In this document: piece after piece, positions 23,843 to 58,738 of the stretch
Numbering within the stretch: position 1 is the first letter of the stretch
Layout: each line of letters starts with the position of its first letter
Assembly: GCA_965231135.1 (NCBI GenBank)
Contig: OZ246419.1
Coordinates: forward strand, 513,488-577,487
Direction: 5' to 3'
Source of the DNA: an uncultured Gammaproteobacteria bacterium
Lineage (GTDB): Bacteria > Patescibacteriota > Microgenomatia > UBA8517
Length of the DNA stretch: 64,000 nucleotides
The notes under the pieces: generated by a model
What the model saw: the letters and a program-made list of their open reading frames with translations, nothing else
The model's database searches: none
Told to the model about the DNA's origin: nothing
Made by a program: the position numbers and the translations under genes

Positions 23843-23850
23843 TTTTATAG

Positions 23851-25210: not shown

Positions 25211-25420
25211 ATGGCTACGATTACAGAGAGATTTGGAAGTAAAGTTAGAAAACTTCGTGAACAAAAGAATATGTCACAACTTGAACTCGCTCAAAAGTCT
25301 GGCCTTGATCTAACTACAATTAACGAAATTGAAATGGGTAACAGAAGCCCGATGTTAAAAACAATCTGGAAAATATCAAATGCATTACAAGTAAAACTAA
25401 GCAGTTTGTTTGAGTTGTAA
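25211..25420 (+). CDS. XRE-family helix-turn-helix transcriptional regulator
   Basis: VRKLREQKNMSQLELAQKSGLDLTTINEIEMG is a Cro/CI-type HTH. Confidence 0.7.
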   Translation: MATITERFGSKVRKLREQKNMSQLELAQKSGLDLTTINEIEMGNRSPMLKTIWKISNALQVKLSSLFEL

Positions 25421-25431
25421 TATATTAACTT

Positions 25432-25833
25432 TCAGTTTGTATTATCAACTATTTCCACTTTTATCCCTGTAATAATTTTTTCAGGCTCAACACTAGCAAA
25501 ATTTGCTTTACCTTCAGTTTTGTCAGCAACAAATTTGAAGGCGTCAAGATCATTTCTTGCTTTAATTATGGCCAGATATGCTAAGTCAGCTGCAACACAA
25601 CGCTTATCCGGGTCGTTTTCTTTCCAAGCCATAAATTCACTAACAGTCAGAGATTTGAAGTAGTTAAGCCAATATGTGAAAGACTGATAATTTTTTGGTC
25701 TGCCGTTGTGGGTTATATTTTCAGGGTGTTCGCCTAGTCCACCAATTCCCTTCGGGTTACGGTTGTAATTTATAATTTTGACTTGTTTCGAAGTCTGTTC
25801 CATGCCTAATTGTATTCTATTTTTTGTTAGCAT
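25432..25833 (-). CDS. phage-associated GRPKN-motif protein (DUF5681-like), paralog of 43840..44244
   Basis: About 45% identity to the 43840..44244 product across shared blocks (HPE.I.HNGRPKN..SF.YWL.YFK.LTVSEF..W..N.P.KR.VA.DLA...I.KAR.DL..F...AD.TEGK). Confidence 0.6.
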   Translation of the reverse strand: MLTKNRIQLGMEQTSKQVKIINYNRNPKGIGGLGEHPENITHNGRPKNYQSFTYWLNYFKSLTVSEFMAWKENDPDKRCVAADLAYLAIIKARNDLDAFKFVADKTEGKANFASVEPEKIITGIKVEIVDNTN

Positions 25834-25851
25834 AGAATTGTATACTGTTGT

Positions 25852-26571
25852 ATGTATTTAACCCACAGCCACCAAGTTTTGCCATCAGTCGGTTTATCGA
25901 ACAATGCAGCAGTTGGGGCAGCAATCGGATCATTTACGGCTTTTATTTTTGGATTGATTGCCTATAACTACACTAAAAAAAGGGAAAAATGGATTACACA
26001 CCATAATGCTTTGGTAAAAACTGAACGACTTGTAAATAGACATTTGAACGAAATTACTGGAAATGTTTTTTTGCTGGAAGGCGCGATTAAAACTTTCGAA
26101 AAAGACGCGTTTAGTGAAAATGTACTAGATCCGTTGGAAAGCCCAGACTATATGATTGATTTCCACAATCTCGAATTGGTAAACACATATCAAGATTACG
26201 AAGCTCTTGTCGACAAAGTTAACCACGACCTGTCTGCGTGGAATAAATCAAACGAAAGACTTTTTAATGTAGCTCTTAGCGGCAAAGTTCCGCTGGCGGA
26301 TATTGATTTAAATCGCAAAGAACTTACAAGAAGATCGCGAGAAATAACGAGTCATTTAGAAGATTTGCTGGAAGAATCTTATACTATTGGCGCTTATGTC
26401 AGAAAGTTTATGGCTGTCGATAAACCAGACTTTTTTGGTCGCTTGGGTCCTACTGAACGAATTAAACTTACAGAGCAAGAAATTTCTAGTGAAAGAAAAA
26501 AATTCGTTAAAGAAAGTAAAGATACGATTGAAAGAGACAAAAATGGTCGACTTAGCAAATACAAGCACTAA
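25852..26571 (+). CDS. hypothetical membrane-anchored coiled-coil protein
   Basis: 239 aa with one TM helix. Start coincides with the right boundary repeat of the putative element. Confidence 0.35.
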   Translation: MYLTHSHQVLPSVGLSNNAAVGAAIGSFTAFIFGLIAYNYTKKREKWITHHNALVKTERLVNRHLNEITGNVFLLEGAIKTFEKDAFSENVLDPLESPDYMIDFHNLELVNTYQDYEALVDKVNHDLSAWNKSNERLFNVALSGKVPLADIDLNRKELTRRSREITSHLEDLLEESYTIGAYVRKFMAVDKPDFFGRLGPTERIKLTEQEISSERKKFVKESKDTIERDKNGRLSKYKH

Positions 26572-31284: not shown

Positions 31285-33465
31285 ATGACAAAAAAACCAA
31301 CTTTAGTGTTTTTATCGACCTACCCACCAAGGAAGTGCGGGATAGCTACATTTACTCAGGACCTTGTGCATTCTATTGAAAAACTTACAGGTCCTACCGT
31401 CGAATGCAAAATTGCTGCTTTAAATCTTTCAGAATCAGATGCATATGAATATCCAAAGGAAGTTTACTGGCAACTTATTCAAACTCAAAAGGAAGATTTT
31501 AGTGAATTTGCAGAAACAATAAACAATGATGATTCGGTTAGCGCAGTAGTTATTCAACACGAATATGGAATTTACGGCGGAGAATTTGGAGATAATCTTC
31601 TAGCTTTTACCTCTAAATGCAAAAAGCCAATTTCAATTACATTTCATACTGTAATTCCTGACCCTCCTTATAAAATGCAGAACGTAACAAGCGAATTAAT
31701 AGATCATGCAACTAGAATTGTAGTTTTAACTGAAACTTCAAGGCAAATTATTGAATCGATTTACCAAAATGCGATTGGAAAAGTTGTTATTATTCCTCAC
31801 GGAATTCATCCTGTAAGTTTTTCAGCTCCAGGGCATTTTAAAAATAAGTTAATGTATACAAACAAAACTTTACTTACAACCTTTGGATTACTTAGCAGAA
31901 GTAAAGGAATTGAATATGTGATTAAAGCTATGCCGAAAGTAGTTAAACAATTTCCTGATGTAGTTTATCTTATTTTAGGTGAAACACATCCAGTTGTTAG
32001 ACTTCAGGAAGGAGAAAGTTATAGAAACGAACTTTATGAACTCGTGGATAAACTTCATTTAAAAAAACACGTAAAGTTTTATGACAAATATTTTTCTGTC
32101 GATGATTTGTTAACTTTTCTTAAAGCGACTGATATTTACATTTCGACTTCATTAGCTCCAAACCAAGCTGTAAGTGGTACTTTTTCATATGCACTCGGGA
32201 CAGGAAGGGCAGTTGTTAGCACTGATTTTGCTCAGGCTAAAGAATATTTACACAAAGATCTGGGAGAAATTGTTCCAATGAAAAATCCACAAGCTTATGC
32301 TGATGCAATAATTAAACTTCTTTCCCAAAAAAAGAAACTTTACACAATTCATCGAAGGGCTTATAACGCCACTCGTAATATGGTTTGGAGCAATGTTGCC
32401 CTTGAATATTTAAAAAATTTAGATGTCAGTATTATTCCGGAAATTAATTTAAAACATTTGATTGATATGACAGATGATTTTGGAATGTTTCAGTTTGCAA
32501 AAGGAAAAGAAGCGGACAGCGAGTTTGGATATACGCTTGATGATAATGCAAGAGCTGCTGTTGCCTGCAGTTTATTAATCAAAAAAGGACAAAAAAGAAT
32601 TGTTACCAAAGAATTAGCAAAATATATTAAATTTATTGAGCACTGTATAGAAGGCGATAAACTTTTAAATTATATTGATTATCCAGAACATATGGCGACA
32701 GAACAAAATAATCTGGAGGATTTGCAAGATACTTATGCAAGGACTTTGTGGGCCCTTAGCGAAGTAATTACTAACGAAAAAATTCCAGCAAACATCAGGC
32801 GCGATGCAAATAAAATTTGGAAAAAAATAAGCTTAAAGGCAATTGATGTGACACATTTAAGGAGCCGGGCGTTTACGATAAAAGCATTATGTAATATTGT
32901 AAACGGAAATAAAAATCATCCGTTTACAGAAATTATTAAAAAACATGCAGAACACATGGTCAATGCTTTTTATGATAAAACAAGCGAACATTGGCATTGG
33001 TTTGAGCACGAATTGACATATTCTAATGCAATAATTCCTGAAAGTTTATTGCTTGCCGGATGTTTGCTTGATAATCGAGAGTTTCTGGAAGTGGGCGAGA
33101 AAGCGCTTGGGTTTTTGATTAAGCATACTTTTATAAATGATCTGTATTTTCCAATTGGGCAAAACGGATGGTTTAAAAAAAGAAAGGCTAGAGCCCATTT
33201 TGACCAGCAGCCAGAAGACCCCGCCAGCATGGTGCTTGCCCTTACAACAGCTTGGAGATGTTTAAAAGACCCTAAATATTCACATCTTGCCTTTCAATGT
33301 TTCAGTTGGTTTTTGGGAAATAATATGCTCGGGTATAGCATGTATGACTACACCGATGGCAGCTCGTTTGATGCCATTACTCCTTCAGGAGTTAATCATA
33401 ATCAGGGAGCAGAATCACTTTTGTCTTATTTGCTTGCAAGATTAAAAATTGAAGAAATTGTGTAG
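31285..33465 (+). CDS. GT4-family glycosyltransferase fused to a C-terminal about 330-aa alpha-helical domain (possible (alpha/alpha)6 glycoside-hydrolase-like)
   Basis: N-terminal GT-B fold (STYPPRKCGIATF...). C-terminal region has WHWFEHELTYSNA and NQGAES patterns. Confidence 0.5.
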   Translation: MTKKPTLVFLSTYPPRKCGIATFTQDLVHSIEKLTGPTVECKIAALNLSESDAYEYPKEVYWQLIQTQKEDFSEFAETINNDDSVSAVVIQHEYGIYGGEFGDNLLAFTSKCKKPISITFHTVIPDPPYKMQNVTSELIDHATRIVVLTETSRQIIESIYQNAIGKVVIIPHGIHPVSFSAPGHFKNKLMYTNKTLLTTFGLLSRSKGIEYVIKAMPKVVKQFPDVVYLILGETHPVVRLQEGESYRNELYELVDKLHLKKHVKFYDKYFSVDDLLTFLKATDIYISTSLAPNQAVSGTFSYALGTGRAVVSTDFAQAKEYLHKDLGEIVPMKNPQAYADAIIKLLSQKKKLYTIHRRAYNATRNMVWSNVALEYLKNLDVSIIPEINLKHLIDMTDDFGMFQFAKGKEADSEFGYTLDDNARAAVACSLLIKKGQKRIVTKELAKYIKFIEHCIEGDKLLNYIDYPEHMATEQNNLEDLQDTYARTLWALSEVITNEKIPANIRRDANKIWKKISLKAIDVTHLRSRAFTIKALCNIVNGNKNHPFTEIIKKHAEHMVNAFYDKTSEHWHWFEHELTYSNAIIPESLLLAGCLLDNREFLEVGEKALGFLIKHTFINDLYFPIGQNGWFKKRKARAHFDQQPEDPASMVLALTTAWRCLKDPKYSHLAFQCFSWFLGNNMLGYSMYDYTDGSSFDAITPSGVNHNQGAESLLSYLLARLKIEEIV

Positions 33466-44556: not shown

Positions 44557-45345
44557 ATGAATATAAATTATAGGAAAGCATTAATTATCGAAAATACATT
44601 TATCGCCCTCATAATTCTTCTTGTTGGGTTTGTAAGGGTTATTAATTCCGTTCCTGCAATAAAGAATGCCCTAGTAATGGCTACAACTCATCAGCCAGAG
44701 AGGTTTACAGAACTTTATTTCGAAAATCATACATCACTTTCCATTAACAGTTTTGAGTTTACTGTCCACAATTTGGAGGATAGGGAAATGACATACCCAT
44801 ACGAAGTTTATGTACAAAGCTCTGATGCTAAGCAACAGCAAATGATTGATAAAGGAGAATTTATCTTAAAACAAGGAGACTATAAAACTATTAGCGAATC
44901 TTTCGTACCTGGCTATAGTTTTATTGGACAGAAGGCAGACGTAATAGTAAATCTTGTTAATAAAGACCAGAAAATATCGTTTTGGACAACACCCACAAAC
45001 ACAAAAACCAGCATTCCTCAAGAACAGAAAGAGAACCTTCAATCAACAGGACTGTATTTTACGAGCGAATTACCTTTAAGAGTTTTACAAGGCCAACCCA
45101 TAAATTTTTCATTCGGTGTACAAAATTTAAAATATTCAGATCATATTTATCCATATACAGTCTATATAGAAGAAAATGGTAGAGATACGCAGATTATGCA
45201 GGGTGAAGCGTATGTAAAACAAAATTCTAGCACGACAATTTCTGTCTCCTATCAATTAGCAACTTTAATCAGAAATGCCAAGGTATACGTTCGATTAACC
45301 GGAGAAAATCAATATATTTATTTCCAAATGAAAGGTGCTCAATGA
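44557..45345 (+). CDS. membrane-anchored hypothetical protein, first gene of glycan cluster
   Basis: N-terminal TM helix. 4-bp overlap with the downstream GT2. Confidence 0.4.
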   Translation: MNINYRKALIIENTFIALIILLVGFVRVINSVPAIKNALVMATTHQPERFTELYFENHTSLSINSFEFTVHNLEDREMTYPYEVYVQSSDAKQQQMIDKGEFILKQGDYKTISESFVPGYSFIGQKADVIVNLVNKDQKISFWTTPTNTKTSIPQEQKENLQSTGLYFTSELPLRVLQGQPINFSFGVQNLKYSDHIYPYTVYIEENGRDTQIMQGEAYVKQNSSTTISVSYQLATLIRNAKVYVRLTGENQYIYFQMKGAQ

Positions 45346-46091
45346 AAAAAATTACCGTATTGATACCATGCTACAACGAAGAAAAAGGTGTTCAAAAGGT
45401 AATTAGAGGTATCCCTGTCGAGAAACTTCGCAGATTAGGTTTCAAGACTGAGGTTGTTGTGATTGATAACAATTCTACGGATAAAACATCTAGCGTGGCA
45501 AAGAAGCTGGGTGCGACTGTTTTATTTGAACCCAAAAAAGGAAAAGGTAACGCGATGAAGCTTGGTTTTTCTTATATAAACCTTGACACAGACTACATCA
45601 TCATGCTCGATGGGGACGATACATATAAGGGTTATGAAATTCCCCGGCTCGTTGAGCCGCTTGACAGTGGATTTTGCGATGTTGTGGTCGGCTCAAGGCT
45701 ATTAGGAAAAATAAACAAAGGTGCCTTTAAGTTTAGCAATAGAATCGTCAATTGGGGATATGCTTTTATGGTTAGGCATTTTTATCGTGCTAATGTTACA
45801 GATGTTTTAAGCGGTTTCTTTGCCTGGCGAAAGGAAGCGCTTGATGATTTAAAAATACATTTAAATTCTGACGGTTTCGCTATCGAGATGGAGATGATTA
45901 CAAAAATGGTTAAGATGGGCCACTCTGTTTATTCTGTTCCTATTACTTACGATGTCCGTGAAGGGGAATCTAAGATCAGTTCATTCGCGGACGGTTTTAG
46001 AATCTCAAAAATGTTTCTTAGAAATTTTACCTGGAAGCCAACTCAACCTGAAAAGCAAAAGATTGAAATAGATATTGAACAAGCAATATGA
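45342..46091 (+). CDS. GT2-family glycosyltransferase (Dpm1/GtrB-like polyprenyl-phosphate sugar transferase)
   Basis: VLIPCYNEE, VIDNNSTD, DGDDTY motifs. Confidence 0.7.
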   Translation: MKKITVLIPCYNEEKGVQKVIRGIPVEKLRRLGFKTEVVVIDNNSTDKTSSVAKKLGATVLFEPKKGKGNAMKLGFSYINLDTDYIIMLDGDDTYKGYEIPRLVEPLDSGFCDVVVGSRLLGKINKGAFKFSNRIVNWGYAFMVRHFYRANVTDVLSGFFAWRKEALDDLKIHLNSDGFAIEMEMITKMVKMGHSVYSVPITYDVREGESKISSFADGFRISKMFLRNFTWKPTQPEKQKIEIDIEQAI

Positions 46092-47251
46092 AGAAAATCG
46101 CATTTGTATCAGACTCAATTTATCCTTACAACAAAGGTGGAAAAGAAAAAAGACTCTTTGACATTTCGACTCGACTCTCACAAAAGGGTCACGATGTTCA
46201 TATATATACAATGAAGTGGTGGAGAGGAAAAAATGTAAGAACTGAAAAAGGAGTCACTCTGCATGCAATTTCACCTTATTATTCTCTTTATTCTGGTAAT
46301 CGAAGATCTATTAAACAGGGCGTGATGTTTGGTTTGGCATGCTTAAAACTAATAAACGAAGACTGGGATATTGTGGACGTGGACCACATGCCGTTTTTCC
46401 CATTATTCTCTGTGAAATTCATATGCGTTCTTAAGAGTAAGAAGATGTATGCTACATGGCACGAGGTATGGGGTAGTAACTATTGGATGAAGTACATGGG
46501 TATTAAAGGTTTGGTTTCTGCATTTATTGAAAGATTTAGTGTTTTGCTTCCAGATGAAATAATTTCAGTTTCAAATCTTACAACCACAAAACTAAAGGGT
46601 AGACTTAAATCGAATAAGAAGATTTATACGATACCCGTTGGAATAGATTTTGAGTATATAAAGGCAATCAGAATGTCTTCTAAAAAATTTGACGTTGTTT
46701 TTGCAGGTAGACTTCTTAGCCATAAAAACGTAGATGTTTTAATTAAATCAGTATTTAATTTAAAGAGGCAATTTCCTCGGATAAAATGTCTAATAATTGG
46801 TGATGGGCCAGAGAAAAAAAGATTAGAAAAATTAGTTAGCGATCTTAAGCTTAAACAGAACGTACTGTTTTCAGGTTTTATCGAAAATCACTCTAAGGTG
46901 TATTCACTTATTAAATCATCAAGAGTATTTGTGCTTCCATCTACGCGAGAAGGATTTGGGATAGTAGTTATCGAAGCAAATGCCTGTGGGATACCAGTAA
47001 TAACAATAAATCATAAAGATAATGCTTCGAAATCTCTTATTATGAATAATCAAAACGGTATTACGTGTGATCTTGATCCAAACGTTCTTGCTGAAAAAAT
47101 AAGTATCATATTTAGAAGATCGGCCAATAAGGAAGAGAAGGTTAAATATGAATCTTTTGCACGTGTTTACCAGTGGGAAAACATTATAAATAAGCTGGAA
47201 AAAATTTATATGACAGCAAAAAGATTTGAATACGAGGAGGTCTTGGCATGA
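46088..47251 (+). CDS. GT4-family glycosyltransferase
   Basis: GT-B fold. EGFGIVVIEANACGIPVI motif. Confidence 0.7.
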   Translation: MKKIAFVSDSIYPYNKGGKEKRLFDISTRLSQKGHDVHIYTMKWWRGKNVRTEKGVTLHAISPYYSLYSGNRRSIKQGVMFGLACLKLINEDWDIVDVDHMPFFPLFSVKFICVLKSKKMYATWHEVWGSNYWMKYMGIKGLVSAFIERFSVLLPDEIISVSNLTTTKLKGRLKSNKKIYTIPVGIDFEYIKAIRMSSKKFDVVFAGRLLSHKNVDVLIKSVFNLKRQFPRIKCLIIGDGPEKKRLEKLVSDLKLKQNVLFSGFIENHSKVYSLIKSSRVFVLPSTREGFGIVVIEANACGIPVITINHKDNASKSLIMNNQNGITCDLDPNVLAEKISIIFRRSANKEEKVKYESFARVYQWENIINKLEKIYMTAKRFEYEEVLA

Positions 47252-49515
47252 AGATAATTGTTATTCCCAACATGCCTACAATGTCTGGTAGGCATTATTG
47301 CATTGCGAAAAGCTTTGTTGAGCACGGGCACGAGGTCCACTATATGATGTGGGCTTTGCCCTACGGAATGAATGCCAAAGGATTGTTAAGACATTGCTTT
47401 ACATCTTTAATACCGAATAAGTCTAGATATGAAGAGTTTACTGTTCATAAAGCAATCCGGCTTCCTTATTTTTGGCCTTTAATAAACGGTTTTCTTTTTA
47501 AATATCAAATAACAAATCTTTACAAGAAATTAGAGGCGGATTTTATATTTACTGAAGGTTACACAAATGAAACAGAAGTCCCTTGTGATCTTCCTTTTAT
47601 ATATGATTTGGCTGATGACTATGCTGCCCCTGCTGATGTTTACGGATCGCTTGTTTATAAATTTGCCTTCAAACTTCTTAACGTTAGTGGTGTTATGGAG
47701 AGACAGAGCAAAAATGCTTTGGCTGTTACTGCTGTTTCGGAAGCACTTCGTAAATATGCAAAAAGATTTAATAAGAATGTCTATAAATCGCCAAATGGTG
47801 TTGATAATAAAATCATTAGAAAAGTATTAAAAGATAAATCAACATATTCCAAAAATAATTTTTCAATGATTTACGTAACAGGCTTCGGCCCATGGAGTCG
47901 TGCGATAGAGACACTGAAAACAACCGTAAAACTACACCAAGAATTTCCTGAACTCAGTCTTACTCTTGTGGGAAAAGGTAATCAGGTTAATGATATGTTG
48001 GAGTTTATTAAAGAGAATAAAGCTGAAAGTTATATCCACTACCTAGGTTTTGTTGGTAATCGCGAACAACTATTCAGAAGAATAAATACGCACAGTATCG
48101 GATTGAATATTTCTGATAAAAACAAGTGGAGAGATGCTGCACATCCTATTAAAGTTCTCGAATATTCTGCATTAGGGAAGAGAGTTGTTTCTACTGATTT
48201 ATATGAGGTAAAGGCACTACGGTTTCCTAACATCTTTTTATTCTCTGACAGAAAAGGCGGAAAATCTCTTGAAAATACTCTACGACTAGCTCTACAAGAT
48301 TCGCGCGATATAAAGGATTTTAAAAACATAAGCTCACATGTTTTAAAGACATATAACTGGGATACAGAGGCCAAAAGGATCATAAAGATTGTTAGAGATA
48401 TGAAAAATAGTAAAAGTGTCGAAGTAGGTAAAATCGTGCATGTTACTCCATCTTATCCCCCTAATCTAGGTGGGCTGGAAAAAGTTGTACAGCTTCTAGC
48501 ACGAGTTCAAAAAGATAAGGGTTTGAATGTATCTGTGATAACTTCGCAACCAGATAGAAAACAAAGACTCGAAAAAGATGTAGTGCAGGTTACTCGACTG
48601 AGGAGTTTTAAATTTGCAAGTACTAAGATAATGCCAGGATTACTAACCAAGATACTTGCAATTAAGCCAAATGACATAGTTCACCTACATATAATTTCTG
48701 CTTATATGCCAGAAATAGTGTGGTTAGCTTCTAAAATAAAGGGCTTTAAATATATTGTTCATTTACATCTAAATATAGAGGCTACGACACGCGCAGGGTG
48801 GCTTTTGAAACTTTATAAGCCTTATATATTAAAACGTGTATTGACGGGAGCAAGTTATATAGTTGTGTTTACTCAAGAACAAAAAAACTCTGTATTCAAA
48901 GAATATGGTGTCGATAAATCAAAAATTAAAGTAATCCCTAATGGAGTAGAAGATAAGTTCTATTTTGATAAACCTAGGAAACAACATAAAAAACCTCGAT
49001 TGCTTTTTGTAGGTAGGCTTGACGTACAGAAAAATTTGCCTCAGTTTTTATACGGGCTTGATGGGATCTCTGATCATTTTGAGACTATCATTGTCGGGGA
49101 TGGAGCGTTAAAGCATGATCTTAAAAAATTGGCAAAAGAGTTGAAACTAAAGAGGATATCTTTTGTCGGACGTAAGGACGGGACAAATTTAATTAGATAT
49201 TACAAATCTTCCGACATTTTTATATTGCCTTCCGAGCGTGAAGGGATGCCGCTTGCACTACTAGAAGCGATGGCAATGGGTCTGCCTTCTGTGGTAACAG
49301 ATGTATCTGGAAACCACGATGTGATTATAGATGGACAAAATGGGAAACTCGTTCCATTAGGAGATCCGCTTGCACTTAAGAATGCAATTAAAAGTTTAAG
49401 CAATAGTAGAAGATTATATACAAACATGAGTATGTCTGCTTATCAAACGGCTCATAAGTATTCGTGGAATGTTATATCCAACCAGTTTGAAAAATTATAT
49501 GAAAACACTATTTAA
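47248..49515 (+). CDS. tandem double GT4-family glycosyltransferase
   Basis: Two GT-B units. Second unit carries EREGMPLALLEAMAMGLPSV (E-X7-E). Confidence 0.7.
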   Translation: MKIIVIPNMPTMSGRHYCIAKSFVEHGHEVHYMMWALPYGMNAKGLLRHCFTSLIPNKSRYEEFTVHKAIRLPYFWPLINGFLFKYQITNLYKKLEADFIFTEGYTNETEVPCDLPFIYDLADDYAAPADVYGSLVYKFAFKLLNVSGVMERQSKNALAVTAVSEALRKYAKRFNKNVYKSPNGVDNKIIRKVLKDKSTYSKNNFSMIYVTGFGPWSRAIETLKTTVKLHQEFPELSLTLVGKGNQVNDMLEFIKENKAESYIHYLGFVGNREQLFRRINTHSIGLNISDKNKWRDAAHPIKVLEYSALGKRVVSTDLYEVKALRFPNIFLFSDRKGGKSLENTLRLALQDSRDIKDFKNISSHVLKTYNWDTEAKRIIKIVRDMKNSKSVEVGKIVHVTPSYPPNLGGLEKVVQLLARVQKDKGLNVSVITSQPDRKQRLEKDVVQVTRLRSFKFASTKIMPGLLTKILAIKPNDIVHLHIISAYMPEIVWLASKIKGFKYIVHLHLNIEATTRAGWLLKLYKPYILKRVLTGASYIVVFTQEQKNSVFKEYGVDKSKIKVIPNGVEDKFYFDKPRKQHKKPRLLFVGRLDVQKNLPQFLYGLDGISDHFETIIVGDGALKHDLKKLAKELKLKRISFVGRKDGTNLIRYYKSSDIFILPSEREGMPLALLEAMAMGLPSVVTDVSGNHDVIIDGQNGKLVPLGDPLALKNAIKSLSNSRRLYTNMSMSAYQTAHKYSWNVISNQFEKLYENTI

Positions 49516-51724
49516 AATTAAAAAGCTGTGGCTAAAGAGATCAAAAGAACTGATGATTTGGCAAATTATATTGCCTTTATTGGTTGTAGCTAATATTTCT
49601 TATTTAATTGGAGGAATAGTTGGATCAATTATTACGCTTTCCTTTTTTCTGTTTGCTCCTGGATATTTATTTTTGAATCTATTAAAGCATGAACTAAAGT
49701 CCAAATGGGAAATTGGTAGTTTCTCTATGGGCATAAGTCTACTTTCTATAATGCTCGGAGGATTGTGTCTTAATACATTAAATATATTTGGTCTTTCGCA
49801 ACCGCTTACGAGTCTTAATATTTTTCTTATGCTGAATTTATTTGTAATATCGCTGTTGTGGGTCAATCGTAAGAAAAAAATCAAGATACCAAAACTACAA
49901 ATAAAAGCATCTAAGGAACAATTGGTAATCGCTGGCTTATTAACGTTTTTGCCTTTCTTGGCAGCAGGCGGAGCTACGACTTTAAATAATGGTGGTTCAA
50001 ACACTCTTACAATGATTCTTTTTGCATTAATACCAATCGTCTTTATAATCCTTGTCGCACGTAAGAACTTGCAATCTTTGTATCCGTATGCAATTTTTAC
50101 AATGGCTTTGGCGATTTTGTTTAGTACTTCATTGCGTGGCTGGTATATAACAGGACATGATATTCAACATGAATTTTCAGTATTTCAACATACTTACCAA
50201 GATAACCTTTGGCATGTGAGGGTTGCGATGGGCGATCCATATAATGCATGCCTGAGTATCACTATACTTCCTACAATAATTGCTAAAATTACCACAATAC
50301 CTTCTGTGTATGTTTATAAATTCTTCTTTCAGATTATTTTTGCATTCGGATTGATGCCGGTTTATTTGTTTGTAAGAAAATTTACGAACTCAATTTATGG
50401 ACTAATTGCTGCGTTTATTTTCATCACTTTTCCGACATTTCTCGATGACATGCCATTTCTCAATAGGCAAGAGATAGGTTTCATATTCTTTGGGCTTCTT
50501 GTAATGCTTACTTTCTCTAAGATTAAAAAGGGTACAAAGATGTTACTTAGTGTAGCCATCTTGCTTGGCATCATGTTTTCTCATTATTCCAGTAACTATG
50601 TTACGCTTTGTATTCTACTTGGTGCTTGGTTTATTTTTAATTTGCTAAAAAGAACACAGACTATAAAAAATAACTCCTTTGAAATACCAATATTAAGACT
50701 TTGGATTATCGTAGGCGCTATTATATTGACTTTTCTTTGGAACTCCCAAATCACAGCTTCGGCATCAAATTTAGAAACGGCGGTTATTCAGACCATAGAT
50801 GATTTTAGATACAAAAGGTCTGTAGAAGACAGATTCCTTAGTTATGGATTAATTGAACGATCAGTAACCGATTTAAAGAGTCAATTTGAAGAGTTTGTAA
50901 AAACACGAAGTATTTCAGCCCAATATACATCTCCATCTGATATGCCATTAACATATTTAGGACAAAAGCTTTCTTCAATAATTGACGTAAAATCTTTCAA
51001 TTACGGTATACATACTGCTATAGCAAAGATATATCAAGTTTTGATAATACTTGGAACTGTTATTTATTTCTTTAAACAGAGAAGAACAGCAAATAAAGAG
51101 GGTAGTTATTATATTTCAATCATTTTTGCAGGTCTTATCTTATTAGTAACTTTTACATTATTTCCACGGTTGGCTAGTGATTATAGCGTTATAAGGCTGA
51201 TCCAACAAACATTAGTGTTGACTGCTTTGCCTATTATTTTTGCAACAGAATTTCTTTTTGGTCTGTTTAGACGATATAAGCAAATAGTAGTTGCGGTTTT
51301 GTTTGTCGTTTTATTTTTACATTCTTCAGGCTTTGTTCCACAACTAACAGGTGGCTATAAACCTTTGTTAGCACTTAACAACGCTGGAGTCTATTATGAT
51401 TATTTTTATACCCACGAAAGTGATCTGTTAAGCACTAACTGGCTTGCAGAGAATATGGATAAAAGTTTACCAGTTTTCCATGATGTTATTTCTGACTTAT
51501 CAATTATAAATTATCCCCGCAAAACTGGGTTACTCTATTCTGATAACGAGACAAGACAACAAATGTCACTAGCATATATTTATTTGGGCTATACAAATAC
51601 AACTAAGGGTATATTTAGAACCTTTCAGATTGGTGATTTTACTGAATATATAGATACTTCAATAACATTAAATCGCAATCTTATTTATAACAATGGTAAA
51701 AGTCGTATTTATTTAGGATTATGA
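49469..51724 (+). CDS. large polytopic membrane protein (DUF2206/GT-C or polymerase-like)
   Basis: About 15 TM helices. The true start may be an internal Met (49499 or 49553), since the tracked start overlaps the upstream gene by 47 nt. Confidence 0.5.
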   Translation: MLYPTSLKNYMKTLFKIKKLWLKRSKELMIWQIILPLLVVANISYLIGGIVGSIITLSFFLFAPGYLFLNLLKHELKSKWEIGSFSMGISLLSIMLGGLCLNTLNIFGLSQPLTSLNIFLMLNLFVISLLWVNRKKKIKIPKLQIKASKEQLVIAGLLTFLPFLAAGGATTLNNGGSNTLTMILFALIPIVFIILVARKNLQSLYPYAIFTMALAILFSTSLRGWYITGHDIQHEFSVFQHTYQDNLWHVRVAMGDPYNACLSITILPTIIAKITTIPSVYVYKFFFQIIFAFGLMPVYLFVRKFTNSIYGLIAAFIFITFPTFLDDMPFLNRQEIGFIFFGLLVMLTFSKIKKGTKMLLSVAILLGIMFSHYSSNYVTLCILLGAWFIFNLLKRTQTIKNNSFEIPILRLWIIVGAIILTFLWNSQITASASNLETAVIQTIDDFRYKRSVEDRFLSYGLIERSVTDLKSQFEEFVKTRSISAQYTSPSDMPLTYLGQKLSSIIDVKSFNYGIHTAIAKIYQVLIILGTVIYFFKQRRTANKEGSYYISIIFAGLILLVTFTLFPRLASDYSVIRLIQQTLVLTALPIIFATEFLFGLFRRYKQIVVAVLFVVLFLHSSGFVPQLTGGYKPLLALNNAGVYYDYFYTHESDLLSTNWLAENMDKSLPVFHDVISDLSIINYPRKTGLLYSDNETRQQMSLAYIYLGYTNTTKGIFRTFQIGDFTEYIDTSITLNRNLIYNNGKSRIYLGL

Positions 51725-54372
51725 AAAAAATAATTAACATCAAATATATCCAAAGGGTTAGCTCCTTTTGTCTGTCTATCGTAAAAAACAAACTTTTGTT
51801 TAATTCTTTGAGTCTAATGGTTGCATCAGGAGTAACGGCTGGATTCGGATTTATATTTTGGACTATTATTGCTAGATCTTATTCTACACAATCTGTAGGT
51901 TTTGCAACAACGCTGCTTTCGGTTGCAACAATTTTATCTTTAATAGGACTCGCAGGTTTCGATACAATTTTTTTACGTTTTTTATCAAAAACTGAAGATA
52001 AAAATATACAAATTAATAATGGTGTTATTGTGACAGGCATTGTTTCATTTATTGTTTCAAGTATTTTTTTAATTTTTTTGCCGATTCTATCTCCTACTCT
52101 CCAAATCATATTTCAGGGGAACTGGTATCCTTTGTTATTCGTACTCTTTACTATTTTTATGTCATGGAATATCTTAACTAATTCGATACTCATTTCACAC
52201 CATCATACTTCGTTAATCTTATTAATTGAATTACTATCAGGGATATTTAAGCTGATACTTGCGATGTTTTTTAACACATCAGGAACTATTACTATCTTTT
52301 CAATTGTTGGTCTTAGTCAAATTTTCAACGTTGTTTTAAGTGTATTTTTGATTATACGTGTATTGCACTACAAACCTTCGCTACAATTTGATATTCAATC
52401 CTTAAAGAAAAATTATCGATTCGGATTAGTAGCTTATATATCACAGTTGTTGAATTTATTACCTGCTTCTCTGTTGCCGTTAATCGTTGTTAATACTCTT
52501 GGTGCAACCTCAGCAGCATACTATTATGTCTCCTTTTCGATTGCAAATCTGTTATATACGATTGCTTATACAACAAATCAAGTACTTCTTGCGGAATCTT
52601 CCGGTAGCGAAGAGTTATTTCTGTCAATTGCAACACGAGGAATAAAAATAATAACTGGAATCATGACTCCAGTTATAGCTCTTGTTGTTTTGTTTTGTCC
52701 TGCATTATTATTACTTTTTGGAGGAAATTATTCTAGAGAAGCTAGTACTCTTTTACGAATTATGTGTTTAGCCGGTTTTATTGTGGCAATCTATTCTTTC
52801 CTTGGTTTTATCTTTAAACATACTAAAAATCTAAAGGCCTTATTATTTATGTCTGCTACATATGTTGTTTCCATTTTATCGTTAAGTTACTTCTTGATAA
52901 GTGTGTACGGGCTTATTGGTGTGGGTTTTGCGTGGTTCTTGGGAACGTTAATTTCTATTTTTATCGGTATTATATTTATGGTGTTACGAATAAATATTGT
53001 TCGTCAACCAGCTGCTTCTCCTAAAAATATCTTAATAACACACTTCTATTCGAAAAATAATAATGGGGATGCTGCGTTACTAAGTGTATTAATAAATGAT
53101 CTTAAGCGAAAATTTGGAAATCCTGCAATTTCCATAGTTGCCTCTGATGTTGTGAAACAAAATGAAAGGTTTGATGGTATTAATGTTTATAGTTCGTTTA
53201 TGTTTTACGCGATGAATCGTTTTAAAAGTCGTCATTTAACTTTTTTGTATTCAGTATATGTTATGATGGTCACGTTTTTATGGGCAGTGGTTTATAGATA
53301 CACCAAATTTTCTATACCAATACCTAAAGGAATCCAGCGTCTGTGTTTATATTACTCAAAGGCAGATTTGATTATTCCAGTGGGAGGTGGATATTTACGT
53401 GGCCAAAATAAAGGGATCGGCAGCTTACTGTATATCTGTTTAATTTTACATCCTTTGATCATAGGAAATGTTTTAAGAAAACCTAATGTCTTATATACTC
53501 AGTCAGTTGGACCTTTTTCTAATAGATTTGAAAGTTATCTTGTATCAAAAGTATTGAATTCATTCTCTCAAGCAGTCATTGTTCGTGAAAATATTTCTCA
53601 TAATATATTGAGGGGTAGAGTTAAAAAACTATACCGTTCGGTAGATTCTGGATTTGCCTTTGAAGGTAAAGGAAATTTTTATAATTTAGATAAAGTACTA
53701 AATCAAAAAAGATATCAATTTATCATTGGTGTAACAGCTAAAAAATATTTTAAATCCGAACTGCAAGAGAAATATGAACTGGCTCTTGCCAGAACTATTG
53801 AGTATATTTTTACTAAATATAGAGCGGCTGTTATTCTTATTCCACAAGTAACTGCTGAATATAACGGAGACGATGATCGAATTGTCCATAATCGAATTTT
53901 TTCGTATATCAGAAATAAAAAGGATGTATACGTAATTAACGACAAGCTTAACCACTACGATATAAAAACCATATATGGGCAGTTAGACTTGGTCATCGGA
54001 ACGAGATTCCATTCAGTTATTTTTTCACTTACATCTTATGTTCCAGCTATTGCTATTGAATACGAGCATAAAACAAGAGGAATTATGAAAGATTTAGGAT
54101 TAAGTAAATGGGTGATAAAAATAGAAGATGTTAATTTAGCAAAATTATCATCTATGGTAGATAAACTTGTCGAAGAACGCGTTATATATAGGGAAAAACT
54201 TATAAAGGTAATTCCTACATATCGCTCTCGAGCGAAAAATGCTATAGCAATTGTAGACAAACAATATAAAGAGTATATTACCAGCTCCAAACATGTAAAT
54301 AGAGAGGGTGTCTTCAAAAGACCTTTCCGGAGATTTAAGTTAATCTTTAACAACTTTAGTTTTTCTAGTTGA
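51721..54372 (+). CDS. fusion of Wzx-type (MOP superfamily) polysaccharide flippase and polysaccharide pyruvyl transferase (CsaB/WcaK-like)
   Basis: N-terminal about 420 aa with about 14 TM helices. C-terminal domain with GTRFHSVIFSL...PAIAIEYEHKTRG, typical of PS_pyruv_trans. Confidence 0.6.
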   Translation: MKKIINIKYIQRVSSFCLSIVKNKLLFNSLSLMVASGVTAGFGFIFWTIIARSYSTQSVGFATTLLSVATILSLIGLAGFDTIFLRFLSKTEDKNIQINNGVIVTGIVSFIVSSIFLIFLPILSPTLQIIFQGNWYPLLFVLFTIFMSWNILTNSILISHHHTSLILLIELLSGIFKLILAMFFNTSGTITIFSIVGLSQIFNVVLSVFLIIRVLHYKPSLQFDIQSLKKNYRFGLVAYISQLLNLLPASLLPLIVVNTLGATSAAYYYVSFSIANLLYTIAYTTNQVLLAESSGSEELFLSIATRGIKIITGIMTPVIALVVLFCPALLLLFGGNYSREASTLLRIMCLAGFIVAIYSFLGFIFKHTKNLKALLFMSATYVVSILSLSYFLISVYGLIGVGFAWFLGTLISIFIGIIFMVLRINIVRQPAASPKNILITHFYSKNNNGDAALLSVLINDLKRKFGNPAISIVASDVVKQNERFDGINVYSSFMFYAMNRFKSRHLTFLYSVYVMMVTFLWAVVYRYTKFSIPIPKGIQRLCLYYSKADLIIPVGGGYLRGQNKGIGSLLYICLILHPLIIGNVLRKPNVLYTQSVGPFSNRFESYLVSKVLNSFSQAVIVRENISHNILRGRVKKLYRSVDSGFAFEGKGNFYNLDKVLNQKRYQFIIGVTAKKYFKSELQEKYELALARTIEYIFTKYRAAVILIPQVTAEYNGDDDRIVHNRIFSYIRNKKDVYVINDKLNHYDIKTIYGQLDLVIGTRFHSVIFSLTSYVPAIAIEYEHKTRGIMKDLGLSKWVIKIEDVNLAKLSSMVDKLVEERVIYREKLIKVIPTYRSRAKNAIAIVDKQYKEYITSSKHVNREGVFKRPFRRFKLIFNNFSFSS

Positions 54373-54381: not shown

Positions 54382-54618
54382 TTGATACTTATGAATAAAA
54401 TAACAAAGATTGTAAAAGCAATTTCTTTTACCTTATTCGTCTTTGGTTTTACTGGCTGGATTTATATAGCTATTAATGCATGGGTACACCCTCAAACACT
54501 AAGTTGGCAATTGACACATCTTACTCCATGGATCAGAGAAGATACCTTTGGTATCATTTGTTTTATTGTTTCTTTTGTTTCTTTTTTTGTGTGGAATTTA
54601 ACAAGAGAAGAAAAATAG
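54382..54618 (+). CDS. small membrane protein
   Basis: 78 aa with 2 TM helices. Confidence 0.3.
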   Translation: MILMNKITKIVKAISFTLFVFGFTGWIYIAINAWVHPQTLSWQLTHLTPWIREDTFGIICFIVSFVSFFVWNLTREEK

Positions 54619-54637: not shown

Positions 54638-55672
54638 TTACACTTCAATTGTTAATTTTATTAATTTTTTACCATCATCTTCGCTAGCGATTATTTTTCC
54701 AATATCGCTAATTCGCTCGTAAATCTCTTTTATTTTTAGACCCCTGTCTCTATATTTTCTAGACTCACTGCTATATCGTCTTAAGGTTCTTTGTTGAGTT
54801 GCAGTATTGAACTCCAAATATTTCAGAGTCGTTTCAAGATTGGCGTGGCCCATTGCATCTTTAATATCTGAATCTTCAGCTCCATTATTTTTTAAATCCC
54901 TTGCAAAAATTCTACGTAAATCGTGGACTTGCAATGGGTGACCCCAAAGCTTTCCCGCCTGACGCATAATAGCTTCTAGTCTCTTTTCACCAACTACAAA
55001 CAGTCGTTGAGAATAATCTTCTTTGTAATGACCTTTATCATTTAATATTTCTAGTTCTTCTGGATTTTTTCCTTGCAGTCTTTCTTCTAGATCTTTAATT
55101 AACCAGGGGACTTCAGGAATACTTACCATTCTCGGGCCTGTTTTACCTTGTCGAATTTGCACTTGTCTACCGCTCAAGGAAACATCGCTTAATAGGATAT
55201 TTCGTGTTTCGTAATTTCTGCCACCGCAGGCAACGAGAATGAATTTGAGACAAGCACGATGTTCTTTCTTAGAAAACCTGTGCTGGCGATTGTCGTAAAG
55301 TCCTGGTTCTGTAACCTTATCTATTAATTTAAGCATCTCAGCTTGAGAGGGAAGTATGCGAAGTTTTCTATTTACGGGAGTTCTTGCCATTCCTGCTGCC
55401 CAGTCTTTTTCTAAAATCCCTTCATTGAACATCCATCTGACAATCTTTTTGACAAATGTTTCGGCCTGACGACGCGATGATTCCGCTTTGCCTTTTTGTC
55501 TTAAATTCAAGAAATAATCTTCTGCCGTATCGCGATTAAAGGGTTTATCTTCAATAAAATCTAGCAAGTTTTTTGCCCAATCTTGATTATTTTTATGGGT
55601 TTTTGGTTTCCAACTTCTATCTTTATACTTAAAATATTTGTTTATATTTTCTTCTAATTCTTTTTTTAGCAT
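54638..55672 (-). CDS. tyrosine-type site-specific integrase
   Basis: R...HDLRRIFA (HxxR) and GHANLETTLKYL (catalytic Tyr) motifs. Adjacent to tRNA-Val and the split tRNA half. Confidence 0.8.
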   Translation of the reverse strand: MLKKELEENINKYFKYKDRSWKPKTHKNNQDWAKNLLDFIEDKPFNRDTAEDYFLNLRQKGKAESSRRQAETFVKKIVRWMFNEGILEKDWAAGMARTPVNRKLRILPSQAEMLKLIDKVTEPGLYDNRQHRFSKKEHRACLKFILVACGGRNYETRNILLSDVSLSGRQVQIRQGKTGPRMVSIPEVPWLIKDLEERLQGKNPEELEILNDKGHYKEDYSQRLFVVGEKRLEAIMRQAGKLWGHPLQVHDLRRIFARDLKNNGAEDSDIKDAMGHANLETTLKYLEFNTATQQRTLRRYSSESRKYRDRGLKIKEIYERISDIGKIIASEDDGKKLIKLTIEV

Positions 55673-55747
55673 ATGAGTACAAGACGTTAATCCTAATACT
55701 CATGTGTTTTTTAATATTAATATTTGAAGCAGCTAATCTCCGAAGTG

Positions 55748-55820
55748 TGCTCGTTCAAGGACTCGAACCTTGGACCCTTCGCATGTAAAGCGAATGCTCT
55801 ACCAACTGAGCTAAACGAGC
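55748..55820 (-). tRNA. tRNA-Val(TAC)
   Basis: GCTCGTT...TTCGC-TTTACAT-GCGAA...CAAGG-TTCGAGT-CCTTG-AACGAGC-A. Confidence 0.85.
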
Positions 55821-55876: not shown

Positions 55877-55924
55877 CACTTCGAGGATGTAAACCGAGCG
55901 CTCTACCAACTGAGCTAACCGCCC
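55877..55924 (-). other. tRNA-Val(TAC) 5' half (acceptor through anticodon loop). Right att remnant of the island.
   Basis: GGGCGGT-TA-GCTC-AGTTGGTA-GAGC-G-CTCGG-TTTACAT, then non-tRNA sequence. The partner 3' half lies at 39492..39532. Confidence 0.65.
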
Positions 55925-55928
55925 TTTG

Positions 55929-56235: not shown

Positions 56236-57321
56236 TTATTCACTTCCAATTAATTTTTTAACGTACGGGATTTTGTCTATAAAATAAGTAAAGGCAAAAG
56301 AAACAATAAAGACTACAAGCCATTTTACAATCACATAACTCCATAAAGGAATATGAATATTATCAACTGTCAATCCAAGCTCATAATCCCAAATTGTCAC
56401 TATAAAAAGGTGAGTTAAATAAATTCCAAACGAGCATCTTGCAATTTGATAAATAATTTTTTTAACGAAATTGTTTTTTATGAATGAATAATTAAATTTA
56501 GAAAGTAGATAAAAAGCAGGGATTGACATTAATACAACATTAAAACTCAGATAATAATCTGAATATTGAGATAGACATCCTTGATAAAATTCGTTTGATG
56601 AAGGATTTGCAGCGTTTGCTTTAAAATAAAAAAAATTTAAAACCAAGGTTAATAATAAACCAATAACGTAAACAATATTAGCTGCTTTAAAATTTTTAAA
56701 CTTAATTTTATTTGTACCAATCAGATATCCAAATAAAAATAAACCTGCGTATGGAACCCACTTTGTAAAAGAATTTTCGACAGCACAGTTTCTTATGAAA
56801 TATTCTTCTGCTGTTTCTACAACACCAACAGTAAGAAAACTTACAGACATAAGAGTTAAGGTTTTTGTTTCATTTGTTTTTATAAAATTTCTAAAAAGAG
56901 GGACGATAAAATATAATCCAATTAAAATAACTAGAAAATAAAAATAATAAACATTTCCTGAGAAGAATCTTAAATAAAAAGATGGCTGTAAAATATCTTT
57001 TATAGCGTTTGGAGTACTTAGGGCATAAACAAGAATTGTCCAGAAAACAAGCGGAACAAAAAGACGATTAAAAATCCTTTTTAATAAACGGCTAAACCTT
57101 TCATCACGTTTGAGCATGAAATAGCCACTTAGCATTATAAAAAGAGGAATACAGATTCGCGAAAATGAATCAACTAGAATTGAAAACCACCAAGAAATTC
57201 CGCCAAAGAAATCAGGGCGCTGATAGACAGAATTAAAAGTATGTATTGCAACAACCGCAAGAATAGCAACAACTCTGACTATATCTGGCCAAAGTTCATA
57301 GTTAGTTATCTTCTTTGTCAT
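56236..57321 (-). CDS. acyltransferase family 3 membrane O-acyltransferase
   Basis: 10 TM helices. N-terminal W...VRVVAILAVVAIH pattern. Confidence 0.65.
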   Translation of the reverse strand: MTKKITNYELWPDIVRVVAILAVVAIHTFNSVYQRPDFFGGISWWFSILVDSFSRICIPLFIMLSGYFMLKRDERFSRLLKRIFNRLFVPLVFWTILVYALSTPNAIKDILQPSFYLRFFSGNVYYFYFLVILIGLYFIVPLFRNFIKTNETKTLTLMSVSFLTVGVVETAEEYFIRNCAVENSFTKWVPYAGLFLFGYLIGTNKIKFKNFKAANIVYVIGLLLTLVLNFFYFKANAANPSSNEFYQGCLSQYSDYYLSFNVVLMSIPAFYLLSKFNYSFIKNNFVKKIIYQIARCSFGIYLTHLFIVTIWDYELGLTVDNIHIPLWSYVIVKWLVVFIVSFAFTYFIDKIPYVKKLIGSE

Positions 57322-57337: not shown

Positions 57338-58738
57338 ATGAAAAAAGTATTAATCTTACTCTTGAGCTTAATTGTATATGGTTTAATAGTTCCTGCAAGA
57401 GCTTTTGCAATCTATAATCCAACTGCGGTTGCCAATAACCATTTTGGCATCCATGTAGCTGATACAAGCGATTTGCAAGATGTAGCAAAACTCGTTAATT
57501 CAAACGGGGGAGATTGGGGATACGTAACTTTTGTAATTCAAAAAGGAGAGCGTGATCCGCAAAGATGGCAAAATGTTTTTGATCAAATGAGGAGGCTTCA
57601 TCTTATTCCAATTGTTAGAATTGCAACACAACCAGTTGGTATTGGAAATAACACATGGGAACGCCCTAGCGTTGATGAGATTGGTGGATGGGTAACTTTT
57701 CTTAATTCATTAAATTGGGTAGTTAAAAACCGTTATGTAATTGTTGGTAACGAGCCAAATCATGCAGAAGAGTGGGGTGGGCAAATTGACCCGGCAGGGT
57801 ATGCTGATTATCTAAAAGAATTTGCAAGCAAATTAAAGGAAAGTAATCCAGATTTTTTTATTATGGCTGCGGGAATGGATGCTTCTGCAACAAACACAAA
57901 AACAAGTATGTCTGAGGATTTATTTTTGATGCAAATGATAAATAAAGATCCTGATATTTTTGATAATATTGACGGTCTTGCTTCGCATTCTTATCCAAAT
58001 CCAAATTTTTCGGGAGATGCAACTGCAACAGGAAAGGGAACTGTAGCAACTTTTGACTGGGAATTAAACGAATTAAAATTCCTGGGAATTACCAAAACTC
58101 TTCCCGTTTTTATCACGGAAACCGGATGGACACACGATCCAAATAATTTGACAACAAACCTCGGGACAAAATACGAAACTGCTTTTAATAATGTATGGAA
58201 TGATCCAAGAATTGTTGCAATTACTCCTTTTATATATAAATATGTTGGCTCTCCATTTGATAATTTTTCCTGGGTAAATTCTGCTGGACAATTTTATGAT
58301 TTTTATAATAACGTTTTAAACCTCAAAAAAAATGCGGGGAAACCAATTCAAATTGAAAGTGCCGACATTATAACAGGAATCCTTCCTAAAATTGCAGTTG
58401 CCGGGACAAAATACAGAGGAGTGTTTTTTATTAAAAACACTGGACAATCTATCTGGGAAGAAAATAATTTAGAAGCAATTGACAGCAGAGCAAATAAATT
58501 AAATATTATTTCTGTCTATCCCAACACACTCGAACCGGGGCAAATTGGAGTGTTTTTGATTAATGGACAATTTGCAAATGTAAGCGGGAATTTTAATATT
58601 GGAATTAACTTTTTGGATAATGGGAATGTAATTGCTGATTACACAACGCAGGTTAATTTGATTCCAGGATTACCAAATTTGAGCGATATTTTAAATTACT
58701 TGAAGCTGTCAGTCGCAGAAAAACTGGCAAAAATTTGA
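57338..58738 (+). CDS. secreted GH5-family glycoside hydrolase with C-terminal beta-rich domain
   Basis: Signal peptide. IVGNEPN (acid/base Glu) and VFITETGW (nucleophile Glu) motifs. Confidence 0.6.
   Translation: MKKVLILLLSLIVYGLIVPARAFAIYNPTAVANNHFGIHVADTSDLQDVAKLVNSNGGDWGYVTFVIQKGERDPQRWQNVFDQMRRLHLIPIVRIATQPVGIGNNTWERPSVDEIGGWVTFLNSLNWVVKNRYVIVGNEPNHAEEWGGQIDPAGYADYLKEFASKLKESNPDFFIMAAGMDASATNTKTSMSEDLFLMQMINKDPDIFDNIDGLASHSYPNPNFSGDATATGKGTVATFDWELNELKFLGITKTLPVFITETGWTHDPNNLTTNLGTKYETAFNNVWNDPRIVAITPFIYKYVGSPFDNFSWVNSAGQFYDFYNNVLNLKKNAGKPIQIESADIITGILPKIAVAGTKYRGVFFIKNTGQSIWEENNLEAIDSRANKLNIISVYPNTLEPGQIGVFLINGQFANVSGNFNIGINFLDNGNVIADYTTQVNLIPGLPNLSDILNYLKLSVAEKLAKI

Follow-up and report, generated by a model that had tools for sequence, protein, structure and literature searches.

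A single gene of a Patescibacteria bacterium encodes a predicted Wzx-type flippase fused to a polysaccharide pyruvyl-transferase

The 64-kb stretch of DNA analysed here (the window; contig OZ246419.1, positions 513,488 to 577,487) comes from a tiny-genome Patescibacteria bacterium, and the gene under study occupies positions 51721-54372 of its forward strand. This gene encodes a genuine single polypeptide that joins a Wzx-type flippase to a polysaccharide pyruvyl-transferase, as the initial annotation had proposed, and Pfam matches, an AlphaFold model, Foldseek comparisons and orthologous proteins agree in this assignment. On the combined basis of sequence, structural models and analogy to known pathways, we assign a probability of roughly 0.7 to the account that it is a bifunctional protein that would pyruvylate and then flip a lipid-linked glycan, and that it closes a glycan-assembly cassette. 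The fusion itself is a variant of a well-known and usually adjacent gene pair; it is recurrent, and it is present in public databases though unremarked there.

One reading frame for flippase and pyruvyl-transferase

The fused gene and its parts are listed below, with amino acid (aa) positions counted from the ATG; the evidence for each is given in brackets (TM, transmembrane; MOP, multidrug/oligosaccharidyl-lipid/polysaccharide; pLDDT, predicted local distance difference test; PEP, phosphoenolpyruvate; ORF, open reading frame).

51721-54372, + strand: whole fused gene (ORF list; identical in three assemblies; five collinear fused orthologues)
51721-52989, + strand: predicted Wzx/MOP-type flippase domain, aa 1-423, 12 TM helices, both termini inside (Pfam, AlphaFold, Foldseek, lysine/arginine bias)
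52990-53025, + strand: linker, aa 424-435, INIVRQPAASPK (orthologue alignment, pLDDT, translation)
53026-54288, + strand: predicted WcaK-like polysaccharide ketal-pyruvyl-transferase domain, aa 436-856, cytoplasmic (PF04230, NCBIfam, model)
53230-53304, + strand: long amphipathic/hydrophobic helix of the enzyme domain, aa 504-528 (hydropathy, hydrophobic moment, model)
53584-53586, + strand: R622, candidate equivalent of CsaB R148 (invariance)
54004-54012, + strand: R762-F-H764, putative R-x-H PEP-binding motif, compare CsaB R306/H308 and Pvg1p R337/H339 (translation, invariance)
54070-54072, + strand: K784 (spacing as from CsaB H308 to K328, invariance)
54289-54369, + strand: C-terminal tail, aa 857-883, non-conserved and of low confidence (pLDDT < 50; orthologues unalignable there)

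In the ORF list of the window, the gene runs intact from ATG to stop and encodes 883 aa plus the stop codon, with the start codon overlapping the stop codon of the upstream gene (ATGA). Translation of the junction, aa 419-442, reads FMVLRINIVRQPAASPKNILITHF with no stop codon and no change of frame. An artefact in which a sequencing or assembly error at approximately 52980-53030 merged two neighbouring genes was considered; in its favour, 5-nt runs of A and of T lie close to the junction. All 2,652 nt of the gene are identical, with zero mismatches, among the NCBI metagenome-assembled genome (MAG) GCA_035549555.1 and two independent Logan assemblies, SRR12170510 and SRR12170514, which together represent at least two sequencing runs; the identical protein in GCA_035549555.1 is encoded on contig DASZQR010000010.1 (810,692 bp), annotated as “Patescibacteria group bacterium”. 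In addition, five orthologues of 846-890 aa from unrelated samples share 47-53% identity with the protein, are collinear over the full length including the junction, and carry the same three Pfam domains. Single ORFs are likewise found in three GTDB genomes, including Kitasatospora isolates, and the RefSeq protein WP_370131113.1 is fused as well. The identical DNA in three assemblies and the fused orthologues rule out a merge through sequencing error, and the artefact, effectively refuted already, retains a negligible probability.

Domain annotation of the protein yielded three Pfam matches, each above its cutoff. PS_pyruv_trans (PF04230) covers aa 449-783 with 93.2 bits (cutoff 25.3) in a full-length match (profile positions 3-280 of 280), and Polysacc_synt_3 (PF13440) and Polysacc_synt (PF01943) cover aa 49-337 (36.1 bits, cutoff 23) and aa 27-287 (33.9 bits, cutoff 28.2) of the flippase half. 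An AlphaFold model of the fusion, built on six orthologues (mean pLDDT 71, predicted TM-score (pTM) 0.54), depicts 12 long helices at aa 24-423, a linker of low confidence, a two-lobed alpha/beta domain from aa 436 to about 856, and a disordered tail. Within the linker, the low pLDDT values fall at aa 425-429 and the first beta-strand begins at 436; the 12 residues of the linker vary among orthologues except for a conserved P434.

With this moderate-confidence model as the query, Foldseek ranked WzxE (9g9n/9g9p) first among PDB entries, with TM-scores of 0.73-0.74 on the target and E-values near 1e-6, followed by MurJ and MATE transporters, and matched GT-B-type enzymes to the C-terminal half. 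The E. coli lipid III flippase WzxE (PDB 9g9n, 9g9p, 9g95) likewise has 12 TM helices, but its sequence is merely 14-15% identical to the fused protein and it lacks the enzyme domain of about 450 residues that the fusion bears on its cytoplasmic C-terminus. Hydropathy analysis also gave 12 TM cores between aa 32 and 422, one of them weak; this number fits the two six-helix lobes typical of MOP/Wzx proteins, which have both termini in the cytoplasm. The count of about 14 TM helices given initially was therefore too high. The two surplus hydrophobic stretches, aa 504-528 and 566-584, are helices within the soluble enzyme domain, and the first of them is not confined to fusions: 192 of 194 relatives, among them stand-alone enzymes, have a stretch that aligns to aa 505-527. 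This helix probably lies at the membrane interface instead of spanning the bilayer. Of the lysine and arginine residues in the loops, 22 are on the N-terminal side and only 3 on the opposite side, which by the positive-inside rule places both termini, and thus the enzyme domain, in the cytoplasm, as had been proposed. Based on the Polysacc_synt and Polysacc_synt_3 matches, the best structural match and the place of the gene in a glycan-assembly operon, aa 1-423 are predicted to be a Wzx-type flippase for a polyprenyl-linked oligosaccharide.

The C-terminal domain is predicted to be a ketal-pyruvyl-transferase with an intact PEP-binding site. It resembles WcaK (colanic acid) and CsaB (secondary cell-wall polymer) in its full-length PF04230 match and its R-x-H...K motif; unlike those separate proteins, the transferase here is covalently attached to a flippase. 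Mutagenesis of P. alvei CsaB identified R148, R306, H308 and K328 as residues that bind PEP (PMC10435577). Based on motif and spacing, without structural superposition, R762, H764 and K784 would be the equivalents of R306, H308 and K328, and R622 is a candidate equivalent of R148. The peptide GTRFHSVIFSL...PAIAIEYEHKTRG, encoded at 53998-54081, contains the R-x-H motif, and the 20 residues from H764 to K784 reproduce the CsaB spacing from H308 to K328 exactly. None of the residues R622, D642, R762, H764 and K784 varies among the 194 domains compared or among nine fused proteins. Scores against the NCBIfam equivalog models fall well below their cutoffs, at 110.3 versus 399 and 99.6 versus 727.1 for WcaK (NF007452 and TIGR04006) and at 92.6 versus 213.1 for CsaB (TIGR03609). 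Of the 426 positions in the WcaK model, 413 are covered by the alignment. The domain thus has the form of WcaK but is orthologous to neither WcaK nor CsaB.

Recurrence of the fusion

In order to determine how often the two halves occur together, an exhaustive phmmer search was run against 1.84 billion cluster representatives, and the best 150 of its 12,988 matches were inspected. Most of these representatives are stand-alone proteins, either pyruvyl-transferases of about 420-430 aa or flippases of about 425 aa (the top ones being P0009, 57% identical, and P0015, 44% identical, respectively), and only five of the 150 contain both halves. This agrees with the expectation that the two functions normally reside in separate genes. 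Four of the five are fused in the same order as the query (P0004, from the query's own clade, P0013, P0014 and P0016), and the fifth, P0012, is fused in reverse order, an arrangement still compatible with a cytoplasmic enzyme domain. The other fusions came to light only through this exhaustive run; a second word-indexed protein search, with a 9-sequence alignment of fused proteins, returned only the same 8 proteins.

A survey for the fusion in other genomes, as the initial annotation had advised, located it in at least five lineages, including cultured actinomycetes. A scan of GTDB species representatives contributed the best 80 of 355 relatives (loci L004-L083), for 83 loci in all, and among these 80 the two proteins form a single ORF in an Actinomycetota MAG (L005) and two Kitasatospora isolates (L014, L019). 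Cultured carriers thus include Kitasatospora, and the fusion also occurs in cultured Streptacidiphilus. In a neighbour-joining tree of the enzyme domain, fused proteins occupy at least five separate positions in addition to the reverse-order case, and by these tree positions the same-order fusion arose independently at least five times and the reverse order once. Both RefSeq and IMG hold fused proteins. RefSeq WP_370131113.1 (Streptacidiphilus sp. EB103A, 856 aa) is named only as a “polysaccharide pyruvyl transferase family protein”, and the IMG name of P0016 gives both functions. No description of a flippase fused to a pyruvyl-transferase was found in the literature searched.

Across the 83 loci, the two functions are fused in 6, encoded by adjacent co-directional genes in 25, by adjacent convergent genes in 14, within 8 kb of each other in 29, and unlinked in 9, such that they are adjacent or fused in 45 of 83. 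Reportedly, Mesnage et al. in 2000 described a similar pairing in B. anthracis, where the csaA-csaB operon combines a Wzx-like gene with a pyruvyl-transferase gene. Streptomyces, Actinoplanes, Kitasatospora and Streptacidiphilus have a flippase gene whose stop codon overlaps the transferase start codon as (A/G)TGA. In Actinoplanes sp. NPDC051343 (L006, 9270-9340), both ORFs are in the same frame with a lone TGA between them, and this locus is therefore a single substitution away from a fusion. In the nearest non-fused relative, from Shapirobacteria (L004, 57% identical), the two genes lie on opposite strands. Elsewhere, the transferase is fused to glycosyltransferases of family 4 (GT4) or 2 (GT2), to a glycoside hydrolase of family 5 (GH5) or to an exosortase, and the flippase to GT4.

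The DUF2206 cassette and its surroundings

The fused gene is the last member of an operon of overlapping, translationally coupled genes, the other members of which are as follows.

44557-45345, + strand: first operon gene, 262 aa, one N-terminal TM helix, two internal repeats, no family match
45342-46091, + strand: GT2, 249 aa, of the polyprenyl-phosphate sugar synthase type by Pfam and NCBIfam
46088-47251, + strand: GT4, 387 aa (Pfam)
47248-49515, + strand: double GT4, 755 aa, two Glycos_transf_1 stretches (Pfam)
49469-51724, + strand: DUF2206 membrane protein, 751 aa (741 aa by the NCBI call), predicted GT-C fold (Pfam, AlphaFold, Foldseek)

The best NCBIfam match of the GT2 is AglJ, at 177.9 bits against a cutoff of 325, and further matches to a dolichyl-phosphate hexose transferase, PpgS and ArnC are also below their cutoffs; these similarities point to a polyprenyl-phosphate sugar synthase. 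The DUF2206 protein was modelled by AlphaFold with a pLDDT of 85.6 and a pTM of 0.87, and the top 25 Foldseek matches of this model are all GT-C enzymes (AftA, STT3/OST, ArnT, PglB, AglB, DPY19, ALG12 and Pmt4), with AftA at E=4.5e-6 and with TM-scores of only 0.37-0.48. The protein is predicted to have a polytopic membrane domain and an extracytoplasmic domain, and some of its homologues contain the Pfam domain PMT_2. From this modelled fold, DUF2206 is predicted to be a GT-C-fold glycosyltransferase. More than 1,000 homologues were found, and those with a named source are mainly from Patescibacteria; the literature searched yielded no mention of DUF2206.

Here, the double GT4 and DUF2206 genes are separate, as overlapping ORFs in different frames. 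In L002 (269-4732) and L003 (2-4165), they form a single ORF of 1,487 aa and of at least 1,387 aa, respectively, and GT4-DUF2206 proteins of 1,094-1,137 aa are common. This joining is a second Rosetta-stone fusion from the same operon. The six operon genes are syntenic in L001 at 46-63% identity, including a homologue of the 262-aa first gene at the same position, and 72 of the 83 loci have a homologue of DUF2206 no more than 8 kb away. The cassette of GT2, GT4, DUF2206, flippase and pyruvyl-transferase is almost exclusive to Patescibacteria (approximately 25-29 of 80 loci) and Actinomycetota (approximately 44 of 80), and is recognisable in the loci examined from both, for example in Streptomyces, Kitasatospora and Actinoplanes. 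Located 19 nt past the fused gene, an ORF of 75 aa (54391-54618, + strand) that is called in all three assemblies encodes two predicted TM helices and may belong to the operon.

Annotation of the operon genes revealed neither a phosphoglycosyl transferase nor a Wzy polymerase, and the operon therefore resembles a route from a lipid-linked oligosaccharide to a GT-C enzyme rather than the classical Wzx/Wzy pathway. This also distinguishes the fused protein from Wzx systems, as its likely extramembrane partner is a GT-C enzyme and not a Wzy polymerase. In the archaeal Agl pathway of N-glycosylation, the comparable components are the dolichyl-phosphate hexose synthase AglJ, GT4 enzymes such as Agl16, the Wzx-like AglR and the GT-C enzyme AglB. 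The operon is similar in its AglJ-like GT2, its GT4 domains, its MOP flippase and its GT-C-fold enzyme, and it differs in that all its NCBIfam matches are below cutoff and in that the likeness of DUF2206 to AftA, OST and ArnT is at the level of the fold only. A three-component glycosylation logic of GT-A enzyme, flippase and GT-C enzyme is outlined in the introduction of an article on an Actinoplanes exopolysaccharide cluster, in which pyruvylation goes unmentioned (PMC13390465). Bacterial three-component systems employ a GtrA-type flippase, whereas the operon here combines a MOP-type flippase with a pyruvyl-transferase.

The initial annotation also regarded the fused gene as cargo on an island, for which the relevant neighbours are the following two genes.

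54638-55672, - strand: tyrosine integrase, 344 aa, neighbour of the fused gene (Pfam; PHROG integrase)
55747-55820, - strand: tRNA-Val(TAC), its 3' end facing the integrase (ARAGORN)

The integrase, 266 nt 3' of the fused gene, abuts the 3' end of the tRNA gene, an arrangement expected of a mobile island. Recombinase, relaxase-like or T4SS-pilin (type IV secretion system) genes also lie just 3' of the fused gene in L001, L002 and L003, and the genes at 40-44.3 kb have no family match. Against these points, no direct repeat of the tRNA-Val 3' end was found in the window (exact matches of at least 13 nt; 22-mers with up to 3 mismatches), with similarity to the tRNA D-arm being the only return of this attachment-site search, and the GC content of the operon (0.31-0.35) does not deviate from that across the window (about 0.29-0.40). 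Furthermore, the regions on either side of the syntenic L001 operon have no relation to those here, and many actinomycetes carry the cassette as a stable part of the chromosome. The cassette also resides in other chromosomal contexts in two phyla. That the operon is cargo of a mobile island bounded by the integrase at tRNA-Val is therefore unproven and doubtful, and the integrase counts here as a neighbour only. The 458-aa and 134-aa ORFs upstream of the operon were considered as homologues of mobile-element genes in L001 due to their equal lengths, but BLASTP showed no homology, and neither has a match in PHROGs or Pfam. A 5'-half fragment similar to tRNA-Val(TAC) (about 55885-55927, - strand), which ARAGORN does not call, lies between tRNA-Val and tRNA-Leu; 19 nt of it (55900-55918) recur in the D-arm region of the intact tRNA-Val.

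Several other features of the window were observed. Beyond the tRNA cluster are an Acyl_transf_3 membrane acyltransferase, a typical glycan O-acetylase (56236-57321, - strand), and a secreted 466-aa protein with no family match (57338-58738, + strand), both of which may modify surface glycans further. Additional glycan genes at 8835-19882 and 31285-33465 encode a GH18 enzyme with CBM5/12 (carbohydrate-binding module), a GH26-like protein, a second GH18, a 726-aa GT4-containing protein and two large GT2 synthase-like proteins of 708 and 667 aa, a richness in glycan genes that stands out in a genome with no contig longer than 810,692 bp. At 21661-23211 on the - strand, a gene for a large serine recombinase reaches with its 3' end into tRNA-His (21642-21716, + strand) and is followed by HTH_36 and tRNA_anti-like OB-fold (oligonucleotide/oligosaccharide-binding) genes. 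The region 21642-25900 is probably a small integrated element; the same attachment-site search found no repeat flanking it.

Proposed route, alternatives and meaning

In the route that we propose, the GT2 would start the glycan on polyprenyl phosphate and the three GT4 domains would lengthen it into a short chain of about four sugars. The tethered enzyme would add a pyruvate ketal from cytoplasmic PEP, probably onto the last sugar, the flippase half would move the finished lipid-linked glycan to the outer leaflet, and the predicted GT-C enzyme (DUF2206) would transfer it to a cell-surface acceptor, which may be a protein or a wall polymer. The fusion would fix a 1:1 stoichiometry and the proximity of the last cytoplasmic step and export, and we infer that pyruvylation is coupled to flipping, possibly through channelling or as a licence for export. 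Undecaprenyl-PP-linked precursors are the substrates of CsaB, WcfO and ExoV, which modify them in the cytoplasm ahead of export by Wzx, and pyruvylation by ExoV has been reported to be important for polymerisation and export (PMC6801904). The same order of cytoplasmic pyruvylation followed by flipping has thus been proposed for ExoV (succinoglycan), WcfO (B. fragilis) and CsaB (P. alvei), in pathways that differ in having the transferase and flippase as separate proteins and in using Wzy polymerases.

Several observations weigh against this bifunctional account. Confidence in the AlphaFold model of the fusion is only moderate, and the packing of the two domains against each other is therefore unreadable from it. 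As the scores fall far below the WcaK and CsaB cutoffs, substrate specificity cannot be transferred from either enzyme. A PDB sequence search with the fused protein gave no significant match, and neither did one with a 24-sequence profile of the enzyme domain, in which the pyruvyl-transferase WbbZ appeared faintly at E=0.85. Since most relatives work as separate proteins, the fusion is dispensable for function, and since other fusions are common in these families (pyruvyl-transferase with GT4, GT2 or GH5; Wzx with GT4; GT4 with DUF2206), a general tendency of neighbouring genes to fuse could explain it without special coupling. Some of these observations would fit a C-terminal domain that is not an active pyruvyl-transferase, being instead a degenerate or repurposed GT-B-like module, for instance one that recognises the substrate for the flippase or regulates it, or else an enzyme that transfers another group. 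Scores well under the equivalog cutoffs and solved structures unmatched by sequence are in its favour, as is the portrayal of the family, in the abstract of PMC8615578, as little explored biochemically. Yet every candidate PEP-binding residue is invariant, stand-alone enzymes of normal length share 57% identity with the domain, and PF04230 is covered at positions 3-280 of 280, which makes loss or change of activity quite improbable.

A neutral fusion, in which both domains keep their usual jobs and the joining has no kinetic or quality-control meaning, deserves more weight than loss of activity, though we consider it unlikely. It could have come about through loss of the stop-start overlap between two translationally coupled genes, especially in compact genomes, and the 4-nt gene overlap in actinomycetes, the Actinoplanes locus one mutation from fusing and the many further pairwise fusions among cassette genes all point in this direction, as do the opposite strands of the two genes in the nearest non-fused relative, from Shapirobacteria. 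On the other hand, the fused state and its short linker have been retained through divergence to 47-53% identity in the Patescibacteria clade, and fusion has originated repeatedly; such persistence and recurrence suggest that it has at least no cost and possibly a benefit. That the pair is tightly adjacent in 45 of 83 loci points to selection for co-expression. Beyond the bifunctional protein itself, it is a tentative and rather improbable extension that the fusion belongs to an uncharacterised DUF2206-centred pathway across Patescibacteria and Actinomycetota, the latter being frequent hosts of the former, in which the flippase half would accept only the product of its own enzyme.

Wzx flippases are hard to study, and there is still debate about how they recognise a glycan unit once it is finished. 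The natural joining of such a flippase to the enzyme of the last cytoplasmic modification is Rosetta-stone evidence for a physical link of both steps, and if the reading of pyruvylation as an export licence is true, nature would have built a “modify-then-flip” machine in this protein. With its soluble domain attached to a small transporter, the protein offers a convenient target for cryo-electron microscopy and for comparison of fused versus split proteins, and the cultured Kitasatospora and Streptacidiphilus carriers would be usable for genetics. Current models are refined by these findings rather than overturned, and the surrounding DUF2206/GT-C cassette is more novel material than the fusion itself. 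This cassette gives DUF2206 a predicted fold (GT-C) and a plausible role, and it suggests that a related pyruvylated surface glycan exists in Patescibacteria and Actinomycetota; the literature searched contained nothing relevant on pyruvylation in Patescibacteria. Saccharibacteria live as epibionts of Actinomycetota, and it is conceivable that epibiont and host lineages share the cassette through horizontal transfer or surface mimicry.

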